Assembly (NCBI GenBank): GCA_023920165.1
Contig: CP089276.1
Coordinates: 2,480,001-2,544,000, forward strand
Direction of reading: 5' to 3'
From: Curvularia clavata
Lineage: Eukaryota
Length of the DNA: 64,000 nt
Below are positions 12,476 to 25,900 of the stretch, piece by piece. The notes under the pieces are model-generated. The model did no database searches. It had not been told where the DNA came from and saw only the letters and a program-made list of their open reading frames with translations. Both the position numbers and the translations under genes were made by a program. Every line of letters starts with the position of its first letter. Within the stretch, counting starts at the first letter, position 1.

Positions 12476-13179
12476 GTAAGTTCTTTTTATAGTTTTATAG
12501 TATTTTTTAATAATTACTAAGATTATCCTCTAGTTTCTATATATTTTCGCTATTATCGTATTCTAACTATTTAACTAGGTACTTGGTTTTGTTGCGCGTA
12601 GTCTAGTGTACTAGAATTTTCTTAACTTCGAATTCGTCTTCTTCTTCTAGTTCGAAATAGAATGTTTTTTATAATAGTATTTTAGGGTCTGCAGATTTTA
12701 GTAACTTAACGTGAAACTTTAGGTGTATTTTCACATCTGGTGGTAGATCGAGTGTATAGATAACTAGTCTATTCTAGGCTTTAATTAAAAATAGCTTAAC
12801 GTAGATATTATCTAATCTCTTATTTAGTTATGTCGTACGAAGGTTCTTTATAAGTAGATATACTTTATCTCTCTTCTTTAGCTAAAGTACTATTTTTCTT
12901 TTCTAGTTAATATATAAGATGCTTTAGCGTTAAGCCTTTTTAAATAATTTTTATAGTTCTTCGTATATTTTTTTTATTTCTTTAGCTATAGCGATGGCTA
13001 CTTCTATTTTCAAACTTGGTAATATTCTAGTAAAGAGATTCGGGTGTTTTCTATAGTTCGTATAAAATAGTGTTTATTTCGTTAATTCTGATAGCTTGTT
13101 ATTATATGCTAGTTATGCTATAGGTAGTAGTTATATCTAATTATTTTGTTAGTAGTTGCTATTAGACTGGTAAATGGGT

Positions 13180-13420
13180 ATGGGGCACCCGGCTCGGGTT
13201 GGGGTAGGGCTTGGGGCTATAGAGACTCGGGCTGGGGTAGGGCTAGGGCTGCTAAGAGTCGGGCTGGGGTAGGGCTGGGGCTGCTAAGAGTCGGGCTGGG
13301 GTAGGGCTGGGGCTGCTAAGAGTCGGGCTGGGGCAGGGCTGGGTTGCTTGGCACTTAGGCTAGGGTAGGGCTAGGTTACTAAAGAGTTGGGTAGAGGTAG
13401 GGCTGGGTATAGCCTGCCCA
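13180..13420 (+). repeat. Left subterminal repeats of the hAT (GGGCTGGGGTAGGGCTGGGGCTGCTAAGAGTC-type units)
   Basis: Directly visible tandem G-rich units; related units in both orientations at 19320-19590. Confidence 0.9.
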
Positions 13421-13536
13421 GCTAGGTTATGAATAACTTTAGGCTAGAAAAGATTCGAATTTATTACAGTTTATTATTACAGTAGCTTTAAAAAAAACTT
13501 TAAGATAAAACCAATAGGATTTATTACAGTTGACTA

Positions 13537-16134
13537 TTACGGTAGCGCGCAGGGCGGACACGCTTTCATAGAGAAAGTGGTAACTTGTCCTCTACCTCAT
13601 CCACTTCCTCTAGAGATTCTTCTATATCCTAACTCTAATACTAACTCCCATACTCCTCTATATCTGCTAGAAGCTTAAATAAATTACTAATATTATTAGA
13701 AAGTTAAGTAGCTTCCTCTATAGGCTCGTCTAAGTCTCTATTAAGACTCTCCATCTTATTAGAATTTATAAATTTAAGAATTATAAGTTATCGAATCTTT
13801 TTAGTAGAAAGCTAATGTCGACGATCACTAATAACTTCCTTAGTAATACTAAAGACTCTCTCTACACCTACTTGTGCAATTGGTATAGCTAGAATATCTT
13901 TTGCAACTTAGATAAGGTGGGGGTACGTAATCTTACTTACTTTCTACTACTCTAAGATATCGATATATTTCTATAGATTAATACTAGGGCTGTTTAGATA
14001 TAGCTCCTTTTTTTAATAGATTGGCCCTCTACTCTCCTCAATTTCCTAGCTTGAAGAATCTTGGCTTAAAAGAGAAATCTAGCTTAATTATAATCGAAGT
14101 AAAATAGGCCTTCGAAACTATTCTATACTTAATACTCTCTAAGGAAATAAGCTTAGTATTAACTATATAATTTCTTAATTATTATATTAAGCTAGATAAT
14201 TAAGAAACTACTGCTGGTAAATATACTTATCTTAAAACTCCTATATCTCATCCTATATCTTTTATTAGTATCTATCTATAATAAATATCTATAATAATAT
14301 CTTGTAGGCTATAAGCTTTTACATTAGATTAAAAATCGTCGTACAGTTGAATAAGAAGCTACACTCTTTATTAGTTTTCGAGTAGTATTTACTCAACTTT
14401 GCCCTCTCTTTCGCCGCCGCAGCTCTCACTACTTATGGCTAGTTGCTATTCTCTAAGTCTTTTCCTAAATCAACCTCTATCTAATTAAGAAAATTAAAAA
14501 GCTAATTATACATAAGCTAGATATATAGTATTTAAAGTTTTCGACTCTAACTTAGAGACATTATTATAGTCTTAAAATAGCTAAGCATTTTAGTAACTAT
14601 CTCAAGATGCGACTATTCTTATGCAGATAGTCGTAGTCTCTTAAGATCCTAAGAATTAATATTAGTATTATTGTCGGCCTCTAAGAGGTTTTTAGTATAG
14701 ATAGGAACTCTTAACGCGATCTCATCTTTAAGCCATTCATCGATATATTGCCGAAACTTAACTGCGCGCTTATATATATTATATGTTGAGTTCTATCGTA
14801 TTCTAACATTACGGATAACACTAAGGCGTTTTTTTAGTAGTAGATCCTGTTGTGTTGCGAGAAACCGTTCGTATCGCTGAGGAGATGAGTTAACTATAAT
14901 GCAGATTGCTCTAATCTATATTGTAGTTAGTATGTGATAAATAACTATAATAAAAAATTCTTCCCTTACGAAATGAATTAGAGACTGAGATGTTGGTATT
15001 TACTTTATTAATCTATTATCTCTACAAATCTTATATATTATCTAACTTGGTAGAAGCTAATAGTTTTAAGTACTAGATAATATTCTAGATAATAAGATTG
15101 ATAATATAGGCTAAGTAGGGAATAGTGTTTTTACTTAGACTCTAGCTTATACTAAGTTATTATAGATCTTGCTAAAGAGACTGCGTAAGAGTGCTATTAT
15201 TGCTGGCATTATCGCAAGTAATGGATAGCAATTTTTTTTAGAATTTACTTCTAGAAAGAAGTTTTAGAACTTTATCTGCTATTAAAGCTCTAGTATATCT
15301 CCTACGGATTGGTATAAAATCTAAAAGCTTTTCTTTAAGTTGCTATTAAATATTAATATAGTAACCTTTGATTATAAAGAAACTAAGATAGTTACTTAAA
15401 GTCTAACTATCTAATATAAGTAATATTTTTATTCCTTGGCTAAGATTATTAAGAAGCTTAGCTGAAGCCTTCTCAAATTATAACTTAAACGCTAGCTTAA
15501 ATTTATAACGGCTAATAATCATAGTATTAGGCTAGAGAAACTAGAGAAATCGTTAAAATAATGGCCGCTCAAGTGTTCGGAAGCTCTAGTAGTTATTAAC
15601 TACTACTCTTACTAGTTCTTGTTTGTATATCTTAGTTAAGTAGGCTAGTATTACGCGAGGATTAATATTTATTAGTAGTAGGATACTTTAGTAGAGTGAG
15701 TTCGATAGCTCGTTGTATATAGACGAAGAGATAAGCTAGTAAGTCTAGGTTTAATAATATCTATAAAGATGCTTTATACTAATATTTCTAGCTAATAGGT
15801 GCGCGAGTATATAACTATAGTTCAAGCAGAAGATATATAAACAGCTAGTTAGGACCTCTACAGCCTCTCTAAAGTTTGCCTAGATTTAGCTCGTACGATA
15901 AGAAGAGCCCCAGTATAGAACTGGCTTCGAAGGATCTCGGGCCTATAGTATTTTATTCCACTACTTTTTCTAGTTTAAAATAATTGCTTTATTTTCTTCA
16001 TTACTATTATTTTTAAATACTAAATACTAGATAAGTGTAAGTATGACTTTAAGACTACCTTTATCTCAATATAGAGCATTTATCTTAAAATGCGCAAGGA
16101 TATCTAGCAATTCTATAGGAGGCTCAGCCATCAT
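13537..16134 (-). pseudogene. hAT transposase, RIP-inactivated
   Basis: KILLILDS*T (first Asp motif), SITCDNASNN, IPYLAYIINL (CxxH after de-RIP), VRIR*NSTY, and dimerisation domain **KVSKITYPHLI*VAKDILAIPIAQVGVERVFS...DRRH*L. Intron at ~14917-14960. Confidence 0.92.
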
Positions 16135-16329
16135 GAAGATTATACCTATAATAAATAATTATAATAAATTAAAGTTACTAGATAGACAAATATTATCTAT
16201 AGAAAACTAGATATGGTAGGAAGTTCTAAGTCCTCTAGCTTCTAGCATAGCTAAGATTGTCTAAAACACTAGTGTTATTTAATATATATCTAAAGTAAGT
16301 TTTATATAAGAGAAAGTTTAGATCAACAC

Positions 16330-17625
16330 AGAGGTTATACTATAATTATTAGCTAGAATAAACCCTAGTATAATATTCTAAACCCTAACTACTAGAGTAT
16401 TGTTAGAGATCTGCTTAAATAGCCAGCACTACTCAGACTTCTCTTCTTTAGCCTTTTCATCTTAATCCTCAGCCTCCTCTATCTCAGTACTATTAGCCCC
16501 TTCTAGAGCTAAAAAGCTATCGTTACTACTATAGCCATCCTTATCCTCGTCTATAATCTTATTCTTATTATTAACCTCTTCTTTACACTTATTACTATTA
16601 TAGCCCTCAATATATAGCTTATTATCCTTAAAACGCGTATCTAGATCAAACTAGTCAAGAATAGAAGTAGGCTCTTCTTGTCTATACTAGTTAGTCTTTA
16701 AATATAATAATAAACTATAATAAACTTACTATTAGAAACTATCTATAGTAAGTTCTTTTTCTTTAGAAGAAAGGTTTTCGTAAAACTTGAGCTACTTATC
16801 TCGTGCTTGCTCACTCTCAAAGATATTGTTGTTTAGCTTAGCTAATCCTTAAAGATATTCTTTGCGTATAAGTAAATCAACAACCCCCTTTTAACTATAG
16901 AGACGAGCAGAAACGCGTAACCCCTTAGTAGAGGTATTAGACAGAGCGTCGCTAGAGGTAGTCTAGAGAATAAGCTAATACTATCTTTTATTGATCTTAT
17001 TCTAGATTTTAGACCATTTCGCGTATATAGCTTGGAGAGCAAACGCTATCTAATTAGCTAATAACTATTAGTAGATATCTATAATAAAAGACTATAATAA
17101 CTTACTACTTCGCTTTTCTTTAAAGCGCTTAGATTTATACTCTTTAAAATAGCTCTTTATAATCCTATCCTTCTTATCCTCTCTGGCGGTCTTATACTAT
17201 TCTTTCTCTTTAAATAACTTAAGAAATTTCGCCCGAGCAGCGCGGTTAGCATCTTTGGCGCGTTGGAGAGCGGCTTCTTCCTTAGTACGTGACGCGGCGA
17301 GATCTCTCTATGCAATAGCTCGAGCTATATTACTAAGCTGACCTTGATATTAGACTTGTAGACTAGTTGGACGACCCTTTTAGGAACCTCTAGATCCACG
17401 TTACGCAATAATAAAATTAATCTTATCTTACTTATTTTCAAAGCCCTACTAACGTTAGTATTTACTATAATAATAGACTAGAATTATTACTTTAGTAAGA
17501 TCTATCTACTTCTACTTAGTAAAGTTCTTAGATATTTAGGCAACGCGTAGAGGTGCTAGACCCTCAGATACGTCGCCATCAGTCTCTGTCGTAGACTCGC
17601 GCTTAATTTCTGGCGTACGCGGCAT
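16330..17625 (-). pseudogene. Second hAT cargo gene, unknown; coiled-coil-like middle and acidic tail; 3' end approximate
   Basis: ATG 17625 MPRTPEIKRESTTETDGDVSEG, then ...RDLAASRTKEEAALQRAKDANRAARAKFLKLF... GTA...TAG introns near 17450-17490, 17055-17105 and 16682-16729. Confidence 0.6.
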
Positions 17626-18541
17626 TATTAACTATAATAAAGTACTAATATAACGTCTAGTATAGTGAGAGTAGGGAGAAAAGGGATAGTTACTAAGAGA
17701 AAGTAGGAAGTTTGGTGATAGTCTACCTATTAAAGTAATTAGAGGTCCGTGCGCTCTAGATTTCGCGCTAGCATTAGGCTAGCGAACAACATCTTTCATA
17801 CAGCTAATATCTTAGATAATAAAAATTAGAGCGCTTTAATTTTAGTCTTATTTAAAAGCCCTAGAGTAGCTCTATCTAACGAGCTAGTTATTATAGTATT
17901 TAATCACTACTTTATTAAGTTATAGCAATTTCTTGCTAACTATCTCGCAGACCCTTAGTAAAACTCTAGGTAATCCATGCACTCACCTTCACCTTCACCT
18001 TCATCTACTCATATATCCCCAAAATTCTTAACTACTCTATAGCTAAGTATTTATCCACTAATCCTCTCAATCCAAATCTAACTTTCCTAGCCTAACACTA
18101 AATTTCTCAACTCAACCCTACTAGTTATTACAGAAATTTATCACGTACTATATTAGCAGTAGACAAGGTAGGGGGGCTAGACGATAAGTTGTTTGAGGAG
18201 ATGGCAGAACAGTTAAATATGCTCCTGTCGCCTAAAAGACAGGTATCTTAGCCGCTGTTACCTCGCGAATTAGAAGCTCTTAAAGACGAATTTAAGGTTT
18301 TAGGAGCTTAGATAACTAGCAATTCTACTTTTTCTACTAAAAGTGGCTAACTAAATCTATAAGTTTATCACAGTAATTTATCATAGAAAATGGCTAATAA
18401 ATACTAGGACTACTATTTATAATTATCCCTTCCCGCCCCATATCTCAACTAGTGGCTATCTTATATCTTTTACATACGTTTATCACAGTAATTTATTACA
18501 AGTAATAGCTAACTAATAGTAGGACTGGCACTATATTCTAT

Positions 18542-19118
18542 AGTGTAGGTGGCAAAACCGCTCATAAGCAGCCAGTCAATTATAGGCCGCCCACGCCTAA
18601 GCCTAACAATAAGAATCAAGAGTTGGAAAGCAGCAAGGAAGACGAGTCCGGCCCTCCTACACCACCCGGTGCTCAACCATCTACGTCTGGCGCCTCTAAG
18701 AGGCGCAGGTTTAAGTCTAGCAATAAATTTATCACAGTTATTTATTATAGCAAGCGACTAATAATTACTAGCTATTACACTAAAAGAGATTAAAAGATTC
18801 TAAAAATCTACTAATCTATTTATTCCAAAAACTCAATTTATAAAACTTATTAGGGAGATTATAGGAGACGTATATCCGCAACACCCTCTACGTATCTAAA
18901 GAGAGACATTAGAAGGTCTTTAAGAGACTGCTAAGTATTTCTTGGTTAAATTTCTTAAAGATATATTATATTATTATAGATATTAATCACAGCTACTAAT
19001 AGATCTAGACTATAACATAAATGCTATCTATACTAAGAGAGTTACTATTCAGAAGAAGGATAGGGATCTTGTCAAGCACTATCTTAACAGACTTGGTATA
19101 GATAGTATTAAGTACTGA
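18542..19118 (+). pseudogene. Histone H3-like gene (tail motif plus histone fold) carried by the hAT; further 5' exons likely from ~17977
   Basis: Spliced translation (introns 18723-18771, 18961-19008): SVGGKTAHKQ...KRRRFKSST ITLKEIKRF*KSTNLFIPKTQFIKLIREIIGDVYPQHPLRI*RETLEGL*ETAKYFLVKFLKD YNINAIYTKRVTIQKKDRDLVK. Colinear with H3 [20 protein letters not shown]...AIHAKRVTI. Confidence 0.9.
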
Positions 19119-19319
19119 GGGCTTTTATAATAGAGTATCAAGTACTAATAGCTTTTATAATTGAGGGATAGCCATAATTAAGAACTAGCTATATACTAGA
19201 AATTAAATAAAAGTTTTATAAGTTCTTAATTTTTAATTTACTACTATAATAATTATGCGTAATAAGTCTTTAATATATACAGAGTATATATATATCTAAT
19301 AACTAAGATCTAGCATAAC

Positions 19320-19590
19320 CTAGTACTAAGCAACCTAGCCCTACCCTAGCCCGCTTATTAAGCAACCCAGCCCTGCCCCTACCCAACTCTTGACTAACCC
19401 AGCCCTGCCCCTACCCAACTTAAATGCCAAGAGTTGGGTAGGAGCAGGGCTAGGTTACCTAATAAGCGGGCTAGGGTAGGGCTGGGTTAGCCAAGAGTTG
19501 GGTAGGGGCAGGGCTGGGTTGCTTAGTCATCTGACCCAGCCCTACCCCTACCCAACTCTTAGCAGCCCTGCCCCAGCCCTGCCCCAGCCC
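19320..19590 (-). repeat. Right subterminal repeats of the hAT
   Basis: CCCAGCCCTGCCCCTACCCAAC units and their reverse complement, same unit family as the left end. Confidence 0.9.
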
Positions 19591-19943
19591 ATTTACCAGT
19601 CTAGTTGCTATACATTCTAAGGTATGTTTTCATTATGCGATTTATTCTTTCTGTTTGTCTGTTGGTTTCTGGGTGGTAAGCTGTAGATAATTTTCTTTTA
19701 GTGCCTATTTCTACTATAAGTGTGGTCTAGAAATTTAATGTGAAAAGCTTATCTCGATTGCTAATGATTGACCTTGGTATTCCGTAATATCTGATGATTT
19801 TGTCGTAGATAACGTGCGTAAGTTGTACTATAGTATAATCTTTTTGGAATAGTATGTATTCGGCGTATTTCGTAAATCTGTCGATAACAACTAGTATTGT
19901 GTTGTAAACTGTGTCGGTGACGAGGTCTATTGATAGTAGTAGT

Positions 19944-22900
19944 TGTAACGGCGCGAGCAAGACTAGTCGAATCGGTTCCGGTGGGAAGTGTCACTCAAAT
20001 GCATATGGAAGTGCGTGGGACAGCAGAAACACCTTGGATTCGGTAGACACTTATAGGCCTGGTACGAAAGGATATCAAAAATCTACCGAATATCTATAGA
20101 AGGTACCTGGTACTTATACCTGGGTGCGGGTCTTCATTAGGTCTAACCCAGCTCTCAATCGGATCTTAATAAGCTGCCCTAGCTGGGGTATATTTTAGTC
20201 TATGTATGGTTACATTACCCCCCCTCCTGGTAGACAGCTAGTCCTATAGCTGTCTATTCCAGTTATCATTCTTCTTCCCTACACTATAGGGTCTCTCGTT
20301 CCTAATTTCCCCTAGATTTTCCCTATACTGCGCCACTCTAGGCAATAGGATGCTCCAGTTCCGGTGTGGCTTCTATAGCCGTGCATGTCCTTCACTTAAG
20401 CCTCTGTGCCTAAGCCTTAGTAACCATTCCAGTACTTATATGGCGCTGCTGCCTTGCTGCCTGGCTGCTAGGCCGTTTACCTTCACCTGCTAGACAGGCC
20501 TGGACGCTTTGATTGGAGCTCCGAGTCGCCGGCGATTCGTTTATAGTCAGGGTCTAACGGCTATCTAGGTCACGTGTGCCAAGACTATTTACTCCCCTAG
20601 TATATATATCAACAATAATATAGTGTCGCCGCCAAATTTTCTCCTCTACGCTTCTTAATCAAAACAAGTCAGTTATAACTCAACGCACTCGTTTTCGCTA
20701 TACCTCTTCGTTGTCCGCCCAGTGCGCTACCAGATGCGTATCGCTTCATCTATCTGCGAGCTGTCCGCGTCTTGGCGCGCCGTTAGTTCGACATTACTTA
20801 CGCCTACCCGTCTAATTCCTCCAAGAAGTGTCTTTATTACACCCAGCAGAAAGAGAAGTGCGATTCTATAAATTTGCTTCTCTTTTCTTTTACTGTTTAT
20901 AGCTTAGCTAACCCAAATAGGTTTCTAAGTACGTCTTCAAGGAGTTTTATAATTTAATTAATATTATTAAATTGTGTGCTATCGCTTAGTATAGCTCTAT
21001 AGTTGATGCTAATATAGAGATATTACTTGATCGAATTACTACCGCCGCTTTAGATATCGCCTGTAAGGTCTAAGTTATTAGGTCCTAGAAGAAAGAGCTT
21101 TTAGTTAATTAGCTCTTTATCGCCCAGAACCAGGTCCTAAGGGATATCTAAGATAGTATCTCAGAGTTAGTCGATATAGTTAATAGTATAGAAAGGCGCC
21201 TTTCGCGTCTTAAGGCTAGGTCGGCTTAGGGTGGCGTTTAGGTCGGCCCTCAGGTCGAGAAATTAGAGGAATAGTCTAGTTTGTCCTCCTCCTCAGAGGA
21301 GGACAAGGGTGCGGTTAACTAGGAGATAGCTAATACTAAGCTAGAGCGCTCTAATATTAAGCTTTAAGTAAGGTGATATTTAAAAGATTTACTAGTAATT
21401 ATAGGGTTTGGGTCTAAGTTTCCTTTATTACTAATATCTAATAAAGTTTCTGTTTTTCCTTTTCCCTAAATTTTATTATTCTGTAGTAAAGTTATATTCT
21501 CTATATCTTATTCCCATGCCATAATCTACTTACTAAGGGAACGTAGGGGTCCCGGTTTAGTAGGATATTATTTATAGAAGAGTTTAAGCTTATATAGGGC
21601 TCCTATAAAGTTTAAAGCTAGATACTAGGTAGAATTCGGGTTATATCCAACCTACTATACTTAGTATTTTAGGTTTGAGCGGTATAACTTACTTACTAGA
21701 ATTTCTTCTACCTCCTATTCTTCTATACTTTAGATAGGAGTTGCTAGAGGCTTTAGAAATTCTTATCCTAAAAAGAAGTTTTAAGAATCCTTATATAATA
21801 GATCTAGGGCGAAGATATTATAGATCTAGGACTTTTTTAGAAGGTCTAAGCGGTATAAATATCCTATCTTCTTAAGTACTCTAAAAGGTCCCTCTTATTT
21901 AGAGAATAACTTCCTACTTAGATAGTCTAACGCGAGGTTCCGGGTACTTAGGAAGACCATATCTTCTATATCCTAGTTAATAGAACGACGATAGCAGTTA
22001 ACTATAGTTTGTATCCTATTCTGAGCTTTCTCTATTTATTCTTTAGCTACCTTCTATACGTTGTATATACGGGTAGCTATTTCTAATGCATCCTTATAGT
22101 TAAGTTTATTAGTAGGGGTGAGAAGGCTAGTAGAATATTTCTAGTCCCAACTCTACCAGAGTTTAGAACTATATAGGATATAGTATAGGGATATACTAAT
22201 AGAAGAATATAGTAGGGAAATTTAAGCACAATTAATCAAAAATAGAAGTCTACTCTAGTTATCTTAGTAGTAAGATACGAATAGGCGCAACTTTTAATTA
22301 ATATACTTATTTATAATCTCTATCTAACTATCTATTTCTTTATAGTAGGCGGTTGATAGCTTAACCTTAACGTCTAGAATTTGGCAGAATTCTGACTAGA
22401 AGCTTAAAATGAACTATAGTTCTTGGTTAGAGACTATAGTTTTAGGTGTGTAGCTAAATCAGTACACCCATTGCATAAATAGGTCGGCCATTCCCTTTAT
22501 ATTAATAGTCTTATAGTAGGGGATAGAGATAGCCTGCTTAGATAACCGGTTGATTACAACTATAATTATATTGTAACTAGATCGGTCTTAAGGAAATTTC
22601 TTAAAGTTAATATATAGGTGCTATATCGGCTAGTTAGAAATTAGTAAAAAATAAATTATCTCTAGAATTCGGGTCTATCTAGAATAGACCTTCCTATAGG
22701 CTATATAATTCCGTATATATTTTTTATAGGTAGATTCCATACCCTTCTAGTAGTACTTCTAGAATAGTAGTTAGTAGGTCTTCTTCATACTAGAGTGCGC
22801 TAAAGATACTTAGTCGTGTACTTCCTAAATAAGACGAGTTATAAAGGTAGAGATAGAAGAAATATATAGGCGGTTGGAATAGAGCAGAAGTCTATTTTTA

Positions 22901-25900
22901 ATCTAGTATCTATCTAGAAGGGACCTTCGCTCTGCCCTAAATGAGACTTAGTTCTCTTATAGAATAGACTCAATTAGCTCTAGTAAATCGAGAGATATTA
23001 GCTCTAATATAGGCTCAACTACAAGTAAAGAGAAAGATTCCGCTTAGAGTTGGGCTACATAGGTCTTAGCAAGTTCAGAGTTAATTTAGTTATTAAGTCA
23101 GTATAGTCTTAGGAGGACCCGCGAATAGTTATTAATTTAGGCTATTTTTAGATTTTCTACATTTTGCTCTTATTAGGAGAGAATATTAGCACAAGCATTA
23201 TTCTTTCTAGGGGTATATTAGATGTAGAAATTAAAAGATGCCAATTCTTCTATCTATCGCACTTAGCGGGCATTTAGAACTTTAGTAGTTATAAAGTATT
23301 TAAAGGAATAGTAGTCTGAGTATATATTGACACGAGAGCGTATTAATAGTAGCTCTAGTCGCCACTTGCTAAACGCTATTATAATAGCAAATAGTTCTTT
23401 ATCATATATTTCCTAGTTTAGCTCAGACCTGGATAGGACCTTACTAAAGAATACTATAGGATACCAATTTCTATTTAGCTACTTTTAAGAAAGAACGCCT
23501 ACTATAACGCCATTAGACGCGTTAGTCTCCATCTTAGTATTATACTCTAGATAGTAGTAGTATAAAGTAGGAATTACTAGTAGTATAGATTTTAACTTTT
23601 TAAAGACTTAGTTGTACTCTAAATTTTATATAAATAGTTTTAAGAGGCTCTAGAGGGCGAGAAGAGATTTCGTAATTTATAAGTATTTAGGAACGAACTA
23701 CCTATAGAATCTAGTAAACCCTAGGAACGACTTCATACTAGTAATAGTAGTAGGTTAGACCTAATCTTGAAGAGCTTCTATCTTGTTAGGATCTACCTCT
23801 AGATTTTAGTTAGTTAAAATATACTCTAGGTATTTGGTCTGAGTAATATAGAATTTGCTTTTCTTAATATTAACTTGAAGACTAGCTTACCTAAGCCTTT
23901 CTAAAACCTATTGTACGTGGCGGAGGTAGTCTAGTTCTGATTTAGAGTAGATTAAAATGTCGTCTAGGTAGACTATATAGAAGCTGTCTAGATAATCAAT
24001 CAATATATTATTTATATAGCGTTGATATGTTGTAGGGCCGTTGTATAATTTAAAAGGCAGCACTTTAGACTTATAGATTCTGTATCTAGTGCGGAACGTA
24101 GTGTACTCCTCTAAGTCGGGGTGTATTCGGATCTTGTTAAATGCCGCACGTATGTCAAGCTTGGTGAAGATTTTCGTCTTATAGGTGCGGGCTAGAAGCT
24201 CGTCAATGCGTAGTATCGGATACGCATTCTTTCTAATAATTATATTAAGTTGGCGGTAATCTATATAGATGCGAATGTCTCTATTTAGCTTTTAAACACA
24301 AAGGACTAGGGAGGTGAAAGGGCAGTAGCTTAGGTTAATGTGTCCTTTTCTAAGGTTTTCTATTACGAACGTCTTAGTGGCTTCGAGTTCTTTAGTGCTC
24401 TGCTTGTATAGAGGACTGAATTAATTCGGAAGAAGTTCGGTTAGTATAATCTTATAATCGTATGGGCAATATTTAGGTAGTAGCTCTGCCGCTATCTTGC
24501 TAAAGACATCGCGGTACAAATGGTAAGCGGATGGAAGTCAGTCCTAAATAAGTTTGGCGTTTTTAGGATTGTCTAGCTTTATACGCTCTTCTAAGATGCG
24601 ATCAATCTTATAGATACTTGTTGTAAAGAACTCGTTTTCTTTACGCTTTATAGAATAATAGAAAGTATTTGCCGAAATGATAGCGATATGGGGTGAAGAT
24701 GTTGGTTGGATAGGGTCTGGAGTAGGGTTGGGAATAGGTGGTGGTAGACGAATTTTGGGAAGTTTGAGGTATTCTCTAATTCTTCGTATAAGAGCTTTGC
24801 GAGGACTGTTTTGCCTCTGGTAGTTGTCTTTTTTTTATAGTGCGTCTCGCCTCTATATGTCCCGTTCTATATTAGTATTGACGGAAGATTGTTTTAATTA
24901 TATAAGAATAGGGGGCGCAGGATTATATATTAGAGGGTACTTAGCTGGCCATATGATTTGGTTCCGGCTCGTATTAAGCCTAAGCTGGAAACGTCTTAAC
25001 TACTTGATTCTGATTATGTAGTTCTGTGTCTTTAGATCTATGATTATGAAGGGATAGTTGTAAATCTTTCTTCTATTAATTTGGATATGTAACTGAATAT
25101 ATTTGTCTATCCTAGTTTGGATTTGGTTCTAAAATCCTTTGACTGTGATCTTGAAAGGAAGTCTTTGGATGGGGATCTGAAGAGAGCTGGAAAGGGTATG
25201 AGCAATAGCAGAATTTAAGAATAAAAAATCTTGGGCTCTGGTGTTAACTAAGGAATGTAAGCTGACGCCAAAGCCTTTCGAACAAAGAACGGTGGGGACT
25301 AGGAAGTGTTTTTCTCTGAATAAGTGGGATAAATTAATTTTAGCTAGATTATACTTGTTTATGTCTAGGGTGGAGAGTTTTTCTAGGTCTGGTAGTTTTC
25401 TGTCTGGTCCTCTTCCGATAAGTATTCGTGTGCTTCTTCGAATTCTTCCTTCTCTGCTTTGATTTCTTAAACCCAAGGAATGGGGCACTTATTCGCATAA
25501 TATCTAGGTTTTCTATAGTTATAGTAATTACTAGTAGTCGGTTTGCTATCTGGTGCAGGGGTCTTTGAAGGGAACCTGGGGGTATTAGAATAAGCGCGAG
25601 ATTGGGTTGGAGCTAGTTCGGATTGGACTCTATAAGTGTTTGGGCGGTAGTTTTGGTATTGACTGACGCGGGGCTTCGTTAGTGGAGTATAAGAATTATT
25701 GGAAGTGGGTTCTAAACTGTGTCTAAAAGGAGTGTTCCTTCTTTCGGTATCGAAGGCAGTAAGGTGTTGTATTATCTTATTAAAGGAGTTGTTCTACTGG
25801 TGTTTAAATCCCAAGTTTGGAATACATAAGGCGGGGGTAATTTTTTCCTATAAGTAGAAAAACCACTCTGACTTTGATATAGATTCTTTGATAGCAGCAC

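Follow-up and report, generated by a model that had tools for sequence, protein, structure and literature searches.

A RIP-inactivated hAT transposon of Curvularia clavata carrying a divergent histone H3-like gene

Fungal transposon-borne H3 genes have been known since 2013 and have been described as recent, independent captures, partly of transcripts. The closest described system is a hAT element of Pyrenophora tritici-repentis (Ptr) that carries an H3-like gene, "H3L", together with a transposase within its TIRs (Manning 2013, PMC3538342); the first-pass annotation of the present locus had named this precedent, and the sections of that paper used here bear it out. The same sections report a 2.3-kb deletion derivative in which most of the transposase was lost and H3L kept, call an effect on chromatin 'possible, though unlikely', and suggest drift (PMC3538342). 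A hAT-borne amplification of H3 has also been described in Pseudocercospora fijiensis, Cercospora and Sphaerulina (Dhillon 2019, PMC6710886). According to the parts of that study drawn on here, the extra hAT-borne H3 copies of the Mycosphaerellaceae are all dead, the consensus element is not similar to that of Ptr, the proteins of Setosphaeria turcica were among those screened, and the event was reported absent outside seven species. Screens of protein sets miss RIPped copies, as the present locus shows.

We analyzed a window of 64,000 nucleotides from Curvularia clavata (contig CP089276.1, positions 2,480,001 to 2,544,000) and found in it a second Pleosporales lineage with H3L cargo. RIP-killed copies and transcribed, spliced copies occur under one organism label, and selection on the cargo and its entry into chromatin are thereby directly testable.

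Anatomy of the element

Positions 13163-19603 of the window are one RIP-inactivated copy of a 6.4-kb hAT DNA transposon (Table 1). The copy measures 6,441 bp and is bounded by perfect 16-bp TIRs, each starting with TAG and single-copy within the window, and by the 8-bp TSD GTTGCTAT. A DNA contig of run X1 represents the empty site: it joins 13152>19602, skipping 6449 = 6441 + 8 letters, with 10 letters at the joint that fit either side, and as it joins the two flanks exactly it confirms the element ends. The hAT target consensus is nTnnnnAn, which GTTGCTAT fits, and the 8-bp TSD, the short TIRs and a C-terminal hAT dimerisation domain are further hAT characters of the element. The first-pass annotation had correctly recognized a hAT element with TIR and TSD carrying a spliced, RIP-damaged, divergent H3-like gene, but it placed the TIR/TSD boundaries at 17977 and 19118, where there are none; the span 17977-19118, which it took for the element, is cargo only. 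The subterminal 32-bp unit is present in 4.7 copies at 92% in 13194-13343 and recurs at the right end of the element in both orientations. We regard this anatomy, and the homology of the cargo set out below, as nearly certain.

Table 1. Features of the hAT element and its histone-like gene, in window coordinates
Feature	Position	Strand	Evidence or remark
Left TSD GTTGCTAT	13155..13162	.	same 8-mer directly outside both TIRs
Left TIR TAGACTGGTAAATGGG	13163..13178	+	perfect 16-nt reverse complement of 19588-19603
Left subterminal G+C-rich repeat array	13194..13407	.	32-bp unit
RIP-damaged hAT transposase coding region	13770..17620, upper limit approximate	-	PF05699 match
48-nt intron, GTAAGT...CTAAC...TAG, with 19-nt box	16682..16729	-	joint 16681>16737
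45-nt intron with half box	17446..17490	-	joint 17444>17490 in X18
G-poor CT-rich leader/promoter region of H3L, box copies at 17888 and 18125	17977..18156	+	
H3L exon A, acidic N-terminal extension, 3 premature stops	18157..18358	+	
H3L intron 1, 49 nt, 5' site ATAAGT in window	18359..18407	+	joint 18357>18408, X14
H3L exon B	18408..18473	+	open frame colinear with P0151, between two spliced joints
H3L intron 2, 49 nt, 5' site ATACGT in window	18474..18522	+	joint 18471>18523, X14 and X18
H3L exon C, tail with H3 10-19-like motif, through RRRFKSS	18523..18722	+	
H3L intron 3, 49 nt, 5' site ATAAAT in window, GTAAGT in other copies	18723..18771	+	
H3L exon D, alpha-N to mid alpha-2 of histone fold	18772..18960	+	3 TAA at Gln codons
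H3L intron 4, 48 nt, 5' site ATATAT in window	18961..19008	+	
H3L exon E, end of alpha-2, L2, alpha-3, divergent C-terminus, stop	19009..19118	+	
Right subterminal G+C-rich repeats, palindromic arrangement	19325..19590	.	
Right TIR	19588..19603	-	perfect 16-nt match to left TIR
Right TSD GTTGCTAT	19604..19611	.	identical 8-mer and empty-site joint

On the minus strand, the frames of the transposase region are hAT-like and full of stops; hAT-like motifs were seen in them by eye only, and Pfam domain PF05699 (Dimer_Tnp_hAT) was matched at 13773-14000 (E 5e-10, 39.5 bits, cut-off 21.4). The RIP-damaged upstream frames gave no Pfam match to an RNase-H-like DDE core or a BED finger, and three further minus-strand pieces, one of them out of frame, gave no Pfam match. 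A counterpart of the Pyrenophora 'central ORF' may lie within the region. It is covered by RNA-type contigs, and two of their joints fall at introns: the first, 16681>16737, was found in X16 and X18, from two studies, with 7 RIP-diverged letters between, and the second, 17444>17490, ends CT..AC (cut +1). A separate joint in X14, 16871>17084, is non-canonical. The introns of both the transposase gene and the H3L gene are 45-49 nt long, and a 19-nt box, TTATCACAG-N3-TTWATCA, occurs in introns of both genes.

Identity, structure and expression of the histone-like gene

The exon encoding the fold (18771-18962, TAA read as X) matched Pfam domain PF00125 with an E value of 5.7e-6 (27.0 bits, cut-off 26.4), and P0151 matched it with 9.8e-30 (P0001, P0151, P0152, P0260, P0275, P0284 and P0027 are ids given in the analysis to the proteins of relatives). 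The same exon matched 164 distinct PDB sequences at E<=0.01, the best 60 of the 164 consisting of 59 plain H3 and one H3.1/CENP-A chimera. The first-pass annotation had read an H3-fold gene at this position and had proposed PF00125 as a check; a histone-fold match was obtained on both the window exon and P0151, and the Pfam and PDB matches put the assignment far beyond chance. Among 1.84 billion representatives the best match was P0001 (E 1.3e-26, 66% identity); the nearest protein is SETTUDRAFT_99795 of Exserohilum turcicum, and the window H3L is homologous to E. turcicum SETTUDRAFT_99795/KAL6166231. The tail motif SVGGKTAHKQ, reported in the first reading, was found at 18542-18571, and the intact relative P0001 reads SVGGKAPRKQ there, with Q at each position of the three fold stops and Cys at 107, the residue to which the window's TAT codon had been predicted to de-RIP.

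Over 261 codons aligned between the window and P0151, 148 were identical, 76 differed in ways that C>T/G>A changes suffice to explain and 37 differed in other ways. Such non-RIP differences fell on 8 of the 99 fold codons and 29 of the 162 tail codons (Fisher p = 0.029); the contrast is weak, and RIP hides part of the differences. The fold is 54-59% identical to the H3L of Paraphoma, Boeremia and Alternaria versus 60% to canonical H3, and intact multi-copy H3L proteins are present in Paraphoma (5 accessions) and Boeremia (4 members). The H3L tail has a net charge of -13 and 3 Lys in 164 residues, all within GGKAPRKQPAK; the basic tail of canonical H3 with K4, K9, K27 and K36 was not encountered, and only residues 10-19 are recognizable. 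A search with P0001 passed 7895 of 8000 candidates and was dominated by tandem-H3 fusion proteins. With the tail only, a protein search returned 1 of 1161 candidates, the query's own cluster, and no other protein; a word-indexed protein search with the window exon gave 2 candidates, none of which scored, and the ESM Atlas gave generic histone clusters only, with all scores <0.9.

The gene has at least four introns, where the first-pass annotation had counted two. Colinearity of the window with the 263-aa model from E. turcicum begins only at about 18157, and the N-terminus of that model has no counterpart in the leader; the ATG at 17977 was rejected as the start, having no homology to P0151 and sitting in the G-poor CT-rich leader. 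Exon A is colinear with P0151 residues 8-75 and covered by a spliced X14 contig, and a loose end of X18 at 18408 reads the non-RIPped end of this exon. In other copies the first letter of intron 2 is G (A>G at 18474 in 5 X1 contigs and X16), and A>G is likewise found at 18723 and 18727 in intron 3. Intron 3 splits the Thr45 codon and intron 4 the Asp106 codon, both after base 1; protein P0260 reads into the former and P0152 into the latter, and for intron 4 we infer the 5' site GTATGT in the intact relative.

RIP has left its signal on the element, with indices of 1.59 for TpA/ApT and 0.61 for (CpA+TpG)/(ApC+GpT) against 0.63-0.76 and 1.27-1.31, respectively, in the genic parts, and X1 differs from the window copy by 957 transitions versus 14 transversions. 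The window H3L has 6 premature stops, and all four of its introns begin with AT, not GT. The RIP stops noted in the first reading include three in-frame TAA in exon D, at Q55, Q85 and Q93, where P0001 has Q. Both genes of the window copy are dead and the protein cannot be made; the copy therefore shows no function.

For other copies we used contigs of the RNA-type runs X14, X16 and X18, which bear the same organism label and whose RNA nature is guessed, and of the DNA run X1; contigs show neither expression level nor strand. Those placed at 80-95% likeness numbered 9 in X14, 8 in X16 and 11 in X18, and one X18 contig was >=99% like the window copy. Their differences were A>G and T>C and nothing else in X14 (102/91) and X18 (122/85), and A>G and T>C plus one C>A in X16 (201/148). 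Spliced joints lay exactly at H3L introns 1 and 2 and at two minus-strand introns, and such joints were absent from the DNA run X1. The splice junctions that the first-pass annotation had proposed to look for were thus recovered at introns 1 and 2; at introns 3 and 4 no spliced contig was found in the four runs (X1, X14, X16, X18), and one 1,273-nt X16 contig keeps introns 1-3. Because the spliced RNA-type contigs differ by A>G/T>C, a non-RIPped copy is expressed: under the same organism label, copies without these RIP changes are transcribed and spliced. Silence of every intact copy, together with a neutral dN/dS, had been named at the outset as evidence against a functional gene, and the less-RIPped copies were found transcribed and spliced.

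Maintained cargo or passenger

The explanation that we lean towards for the locus as a whole is that the H3L cargo is old, is kept by its transposon lineage and substitutes for H3. Rather than a recent accident, the cargo would be an old one retained by the lineage. From the central region of the element, transcription runs divergently into the minus-strand transposase gene and the plus-strand, multi-intron H3L. The predicted product of about 260 aa would consist of an acidic, Pro/Ser-rich N-terminal extension, a short motif resembling H3 residues 10-19 and a complete H3 fold. Most likely it would pair with H4 and enter nucleosomes as an H3 lacking K4, K9, K27 and K36, and H3L would then be a modification-poor H3 substitute. 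With its acidic tail H3L departs from every nucleosomal H3 known, and it may therefore stay out of chromatin altogether. The spliced, less-RIPped copies and the gene structure shared with Pyrenophora argue against a purely recent passive capture, and the intron positions and box in common with the Pyrenophora gene point to one older, maintained cargo and not to repeated accidents. That selection maintains the cargo has, in our judgment, a slightly better than even chance.

That H3L is a neutral passenger is rather unlikely. An H3-type gene would once have been trapped between hAT ends by transduplication and copied along with them, transcribed from the element's own or read-through promoters without benefit, and left to drift until RIP or deletion removed it. 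The window copy and most X1 copies are RIP-mutated, as the excess of transitions over transversions shows, and H3L evolves fast: folds from different genera are only about 53-59% identical, against near invariance in canonical H3. A transposon cargo is, moreover, expected to be transcribed even when neutral. Drift was the suggestion for Ptr (PMC3538342), and the dead copies of the Mycosphaerellaceae fit it as well (PMC6710886), as far as the sections of the two papers used here go. A passenger does not, however, readily account for intact ORFs persisting in several genera, for the conservation of intron positions and intronic box between Pyrenophora and the window element, for a fold less changed than the tail (weakly, at the p value given above), or for the Ptr derivative that, in the published description drawn on here, shed most of its transposase yet kept H3L.

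If the cargo is maintained, H3L nucleosomes would blunt silencing by H3K9/K27 methylation of the element or of the surrounding genome, a specific mechanism that we consider doubtful. The full form of this proposal, that an old Pleosporales hAT lineage keeps, for anti-silencing, a selected H3 variant whose tail has lost the lysines of the silencing marks (K9, K27) and of the K4/K36 marks and gained an acidic extension, and whose loop 1 is CenH3-like, is rather improbable. It would have H3L shield the element from heterochromatin and perhaps also from a heterochromatin-linked branch of RIP, and the box-bearing mini-introns of both genes would be part of one co-regulated module. Were the protein an anti-silencing nucleosome component, it would represent a new route by which a eukaryotic transposon counters host chromatin defence; otherwise, the locus is another case of passive transduplication followed by RIP.

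The distribution of the box could also mean that the region matters as DNA or RNA, with the boxed introns and leader as candidate cis elements (putative transposase or host-factor binding sites, or splicing signals) and the H3-like ORF incidental. At <=1 mismatch the box has 13 matches in the window, all within the element (13461-19252), against 0.11 expected by chance per 64-kb window. Inside each gene it is always in sense orientation, and the two outermost copies point inward, about 300-350 bp from the element ends. It is also kept in intron A and the 5' region of the Pyrenophora H3L, while the rest of that intron differs (Fig. S3, by eye). Each of the two subterminal copies, however, has a mismatch and lies within AT-rich sequence, and since the box also occupies transposase introns, it leaves unexplained why an H3 fold of all things stays open in several genera; we think this reading very unlikely.

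The first-pass annotation had stressed CenH3-like traits, and several of them hold: loop 1 is two residues longer in the window, P0001, P0275, P0284 and P0027, position 68 is Ile in the window and Ala in P0001, position 84 is Ile, and position 107 is Tyr in the window and Cys in P0001. Traits of this kind are the CenH3 criteria that the Methods sections of two papers quote from Malik and Henikoff 2003, but there the diagnostic Thr is at 118, and Thr118 (KRVTI) is kept, which leaves the Thr trait ambiguous. The CenH3 of Pleosporales (PTRG_01332, SNOG_15370; Manning 2013 Table S10, PMC3538342), a well conserved host protein with RWQSQ, HDANLC and the C-terminus RRLRAAWGAPV, keeps Q68 and carries Trp and Ala at positions 84 and 107, respectively, in the material drawn on here. 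It resembles H3L in its H3 fold, divergent tail, longer loop 1 and absence of Phe84 and Thr107. In contrast to it, H3L is transposon-carried and multi-copy and has lost Gln68, and by eye the window H3L has neither its tail, RWQSQ and HDANLC nor its C-terminus; judged from these comparisons, H3L is not the Pleosporales CenH3 orthologue. The Pyrenophora H3L, as described in the sections used here, has no loop extension and keeps F84, so the CenH3-like traits vary within the H3L family. That the cargo has its origin in CenH3 or behaves like it, and steers the element or the nucleosomes on it towards centromeric regions that are AT-rich and RIPped, is hardly probable: the loop, the replaced residues, a long N-tail not alignable with H3 and one NCBI record labeling the E. 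turcicum protein 'cse4' speak for it, and against it stand the automatic nature of that label, the retained Thr118, a conserved and different true CenH3, the variable traits of the Pyrenophora gene and the best 60 PDB matches of P0001, all canonical H3 and 0 CenH3.

Comparison with known systems

The bracovirus H4 with an N-terminal extension is a virus-encoded histone and, like H3L, a divergent core histone with an extra tail on a parasitic element; it is viral and an H4, and the likeness is an analogy only. Introner-like elements of Dothideomycetes are near-identical spliceosomal introns in unrelated genes, and the box-bearing introns in the transposase and H3L genes of this one element bear some resemblance to them. 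In the parts of the sources used here, introner-like elements are said to exceed regular introns in length, to be structured and to occur in hundreds of host genes (PMC3609843, PMC4457414), whereas the introns of the element are 45-49 nt long and, within the window, transposon-confined. The Mycosphaerellaceae elements are alike in the 8-bp TSD, in short TIRs (about 18-20 bp there), in the H3-like cargo, in the confinement of copies to AT-rich blocks and in the RIP stops. As far as the published description used here goes, they differ in their size of 9.5 kb and in carrying H3 without introns, in one or two copies, which was interpreted as transcript capture.

The comparison with Ptr is closer, although it too draws on parts of the published account. 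The Ptr elements are smaller (5.6 and 2.3 kb versus 6.4 kb), and their 26 copies show hardly any differences and no RIP; copies of the window element, by contrast, are heavily RIPped. The Ptr protein of 157 aa has a basic, H3-like MARTK tail with insertions, no loop-1 extension and F84 kept, its gene has two introns against at least four, and the two folds are only about 53% identical (by eye). Since the window fold is no closer to the H3L of Paraphoma, Boeremia or Alternaria than to canonical H3, a common origin rests on introns, box and a few residues compared by eye. The two Ptr introns interrupt the codons that window introns 3 and 4 interrupt, each in the same phase (Thr45 A|CT, Asp106 G|AC), the TTATCACAG-N3-TTWATCA box is present in an intron and in the leader of both genes, and Cys107, Asn110, the loss of Gln68 and the Tyr of the C-terminal RY motif are shared derived residues. 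For both genes transcripts exist, and the protein of each fits neither H3 nor CenH3. The shared intron positions and intronic box indicate the same kind of cargo, and from this comparison of the cargo genes the window H3L and the Ptr H3L are probably of common origin.

The hAT element and its setting

The transposon boundaries proposed in the first-pass annotation, 17977 and 19118, did not stand: neither an inverted repeat nor a duplication was found there. By inspecting two G+C-rich repeat islands (13.2–13.4 kb and 19.3–19.6 kb), we located the ends of a 6,441-bp hAT element at 13163–19603, present as one copy within the window, with subterminal arrays of a 32-bp unit that match between its left and right ends. 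Scanning 12–26 kb against Pfam in six frames gave a Histone match on the plus strand, the hAT C-terminal dimerisation domain (PF05699, E 5e-10) on the minus strand at 13773–14000, and Gypsy-type domains outside the element.

Coordinates of the features of the hAT element (window positions)
Feature	Position	Length	Remark
Left TIR, TAGACTGGTAAATGGG	13163–13178		perfect reverse complement of right TIR
Right TIR	19588–19603		perfect reverse complement of TAGACTGGTAAATGGG
TSD, GTTGCTAT			adjoins both TIRs on the outer side
H3L intron 1	18359–18407	49 nt	
H3L intron 2	18474–18522	49 nt	
H3L intron 3	18723–18771	49 nt	
H3L intron 4	18961–19008	48 nt	
Box example	18365–18383		
Box example	18480–18498		
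Box example	18729–18747		
Box example	16705–16723		minus strand

These ends have independent support from a public DNA run with the same organism label (X1), in which a contig links 13152 directly to 19602. It skips 6,449 nt (6,441 + 8), has 10 letters that fit either side, and is the empty site with one copy of the target-site duplication (TSD). Two further X1 contigs (13276>19534 and 13279>19544) link the subterminal arrays through 18–25 foreign letters; they are short, MITE-like forms of this hAT that arose by internal deletion in the same-label genome. Summed X1 contig depth at 13000–13226 is 2–6 times that of the element bins, and in other X1 contigs the hAT is missing and this flank runs on to the right one; the hAT therefore lies within a several-copy repeat.

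The base composition of the window is fungal-like, with gene-rich stretches at ~50% G+C and an AT-rich block (~11–40 kb, ~35% G+C) that contains the element. RIP indices are 1.59 and 0.61 in the element vs. 0.63–0.76 and 1.27–1.31 in the genic parts. RIP-damaged Gypsy-type retrotransposon remains flank the hAT on the minus strand (21792–24282 and 12482–12866); one side has reverse transcriptase, RNase H, SH3 and integrase zinc finger domains, the other a further SH3 plus a chromodomain. The hAT in the window, of the autonomous type and with a divergent gene pair, is a dead copy.

The H3-like gene, its introns and its copies

Translation of 17977–19180 gives a colinear H3 in two frames, interrupted by short AT-rich spacers and TAA/TAG stops, and the main fold exon, once its stops are taken as X, matches Pfam Histone (PF00125; E 5.7e-6, 27.0 bits, threshold 26.4). 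The H3-like gene (H3L) read earlier from the sequence alone is thereby confirmed, as are its tail motif SVGGKTAHKQ, a loop 1 two residues longer, the replaced Q68 and F84, TAT at 107 and RIP stops, three of them TAA at Gln codons. The fold exon had matches (E<=0.01) to 164 different PDB sequences; the 60 listed comprise 59 plain H3 and one H3.1/CENP-A chimera. A HMMER search of 1.84 billion representatives returned 575 matches at E<=1e-3, of which 12 reached E<=1e-10, and the top one (P0001; E 1.3e-26, 66% identity) is Exserohilum turcicum SETTUDRAFT_99795; P0151 (KAL6166231.1, 263 aa) is a longer model of that locus.

Removal of four spacers renders ~18157–19118 colinear with P0151, and 148 of the 261 aligned codons are identical; C>T/G>A alone can explain a further 76, but not the remaining 37. 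With six premature stops in the joined frame and AT at the 5' end of all four spacers, this copy is a pseudogene. Two unnamed ORFs of the same 90% cluster (P0260 and P0152) continue reading into introns 3 and 4, which shows that the intact relative carries both introns with GT at the 5' end. The ATG at 17977, previously taken as the start, lies at a (TCACCT) repeat (3.5 copies, 17983–18003) in a region with hardly any G on the plus strand, which resembles a CT-rich fungal promoter or leader more than it does coding sequence. A 30-bp tandem duplication (19104–19165; 2.1 copies, 84% matches) runs across the H3L stop codon.

No run among the 19 public ones listed is recorded as RNA covering this stretch. 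We aligned contigs of X1 and of three same-label runs guessed to be RNA (X14, X16 and X18), from two studies, onto 13000–19800 at 80% likeness. X1 contributed 956 pieces, from 99+% down to <90% alike and one of them identical to the window, with 957 transitions and 14 transversions; they are a multi-copy family in which the degree of RIP varies between copies. The RNA-type runs gave 9, 8 and 11 contigs covering both genes, 80–95% alike to the window except one X18 contig at >=99%, and such contigs cannot show expression level or strand. Apart from one C>A, the contigs differ from the window solely by A>G and T>C and therefore derive from copies without the window's RIP changes.

The first-pass annotation had proposed checking two splice junctions; four introns are now modelled, and joints were seen at the first two. 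The X14 joint 18357>18408 falls exactly at intron 1, where the loose end of an X18 contig gives the exon A terminus in its non-RIPped form, and 18471>18523, at intron 2, occurs in X14 and X18 (one study); no spliced contig in the aligned runs covers introns 3 and 4. On the minus strand, 16681>16737 in X16 and X18 (two studies) corresponds to a 48-nt GTAAGT...TAG intron (16682–16729), and 17444>17490 occurs in X18. None of these joints was found in the DNA run X1, and A>G changes at 18474, 18723 and 18727 in other copies restore a 5' GT to introns 2 and 3. A 1,273-nt X16 contig keeping introns 1–3 counts against the splicing reading. The hAT family includes transcribed, spliced members. Another X14 joint, 16871>17084, skips 212 nt with non-canonical ends and nine letters in between, and may reflect a variant carrying a deletion, unusual splicing or faulty alignment of RIP-diverged sequence.

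A 19-nt box, TTATYAYAG-N3-TTWATYA with <=1 mismatch, has 13 matches at 13461–19252 and none outside the element within the 64-kb window, where 0.11 would be expected by chance; of these, 11 lie in the two genes or their leader, in sense orientation, and the other two are close to the element ends, pointing inward. In short introns of both the H3L and transposase genes, sense throughout, it reads TTATCACAG-N3-TTWATCA, often RIPped to TTATTATAG..., a few bases 3' of the 5' splice site; the RNA-supported intron 17446–17490 has half a box. The box could mark a self-copying mini-intron family or be a transposon cis element.

Possible roles of the cargo

Intact ORFs in several genera, conserved intron positions, and non-RIP differences from P0151 that are rarer in the fold (8/99) than in the tail (29/162; p = 0.029) suggest that the cargo is maintained, as does its retention in the deletion form of the Pyrenophora tritici-repentis element (Manning 2013, PMC3538342). 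A neutral passenger gene is possible but doubtful. By eye, H3L retains Arg72, Arg83, Arg116, Thr118, His113, Asp123 and Leu126, making pairing with H4 plausible. The tail has a net charge of -13 and its only lysines are the three of GGKAPRKQPAK, leaving no K4, K9, K27 or K36. Our preferred mechanism, itself rather unlikely, is that H3L would serve as a modification-poor H3 substitute and so weaken methylation-based silencing.

The CenH3-like hallmarks noted earlier held in part. The Malik and Henikoff criteria, as quoted in two Methods passages, are a longer loop 1 and absence of Gln, Phe and Thr at 69, 85 and 118; H3L has the longer loop and neither the Gln nor the Phe, and the Thr is ambiguous, position 107 being Cys/Tyr, yet Thr118 is retained. 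Pleosporales CenH3 (PTRG_01332, SNOG_15370), conserved across two families in Table S10 of Manning 2013 (PMC3538342), differs in retaining Gln68 and in having RWQSQ, HDANLC and the C-terminus RRLRAAWGAPV. Canonical H3 accounts for every one of the 60 best PDB matches of P0001, and a tail-only search with P0151 recovered no protein beyond its own cluster (1/1161 candidates). We conclude that H3L resembles CenH3 in a few traits and is not CenH3 itself, and a CenH3-type role is very improbable. KAL6166231.1 is publicly named 'centromeric DNA-binding histone H3-like protein cse4', probably an automatic misnomer of a transposon-type H3L, judging by the CenH3 sequences of that table. A purely cis-acting role of the region is likewise highly unlikely.

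Relation to other hAT-borne H3 genes

A hAT-borne H3-like gene is a kind already published, and the Pyrenophora precedent noted earlier is real: Manning 2013 (PMC3538342) describes a P. tritici-repentis hAT in two forms, 5.6 and 2.3 kb, whose H3L has 26 nearly identical, EST-supported copies and matches neither H3 nor CenH3. Dhillon 2019 (PMC6710886) describes 9.5-kb hAT elements of Mycosphaerellaceae with intron-less H3 copies, all RIPped, and regards the Pyrenophora event as recent and independent. That study also screened Setosphaeria turcica proteins and reports the H3 amplification event to be absent from other species.

Several identical or near-identical intact H3-like copies occur in Paraphoma chrysanthemicola and Boeremia exigua, and single ones in Alternaria gaisen, Eremomyces bilateralis and Colletotrichum shisoi. 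Cys107, Asn110, the RY motif and loss of Gln68 are found in proteins of Paraphoma (five accessions), Boeremia (four cluster members) and A. gaisen; the intact proteins of all five species (P0279, P0287, P0039, P0288–P0290, P0082, P0027 and P0091) have the same derived residues.

Fold identity among H3L-type proteins (54–59%) does not exceed that to canonical H3 (60%), so the case for common origin draws on gene structure, the box and derived residues held in common. New here are a second Pleosporales lineage, whose protein is longer, has an acidic tail and is more CenH3-like; expressed non-RIPped copies; a box-bearing mini-intron family common to both transposon genes; and sequence evidence pointing to common origin with the Pyrenophora H3L. 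The two P. tritici-repentis introns split the Thr45 and Asp106 codons after the first base (Manning 2013, PMC3538342, Fig. S3), and by eye both positions and phases equal those of window introns 3 and 4. The box, as in the window element, is present in its intron A (ttatcacag-tcg-tttatca) and, as TTATCACAG-TAA-TTAATCA, ~60 nt 5' of its ATG (same figure). The P. tritici-repentis (Table S10) and E. turcicum proteins both have Cys107, Asn110 and a C-terminal RY and lack Gln68. On these comparisons, made by eye, the H3L cargo gene is shown to be common to this element and Pyrenophora.
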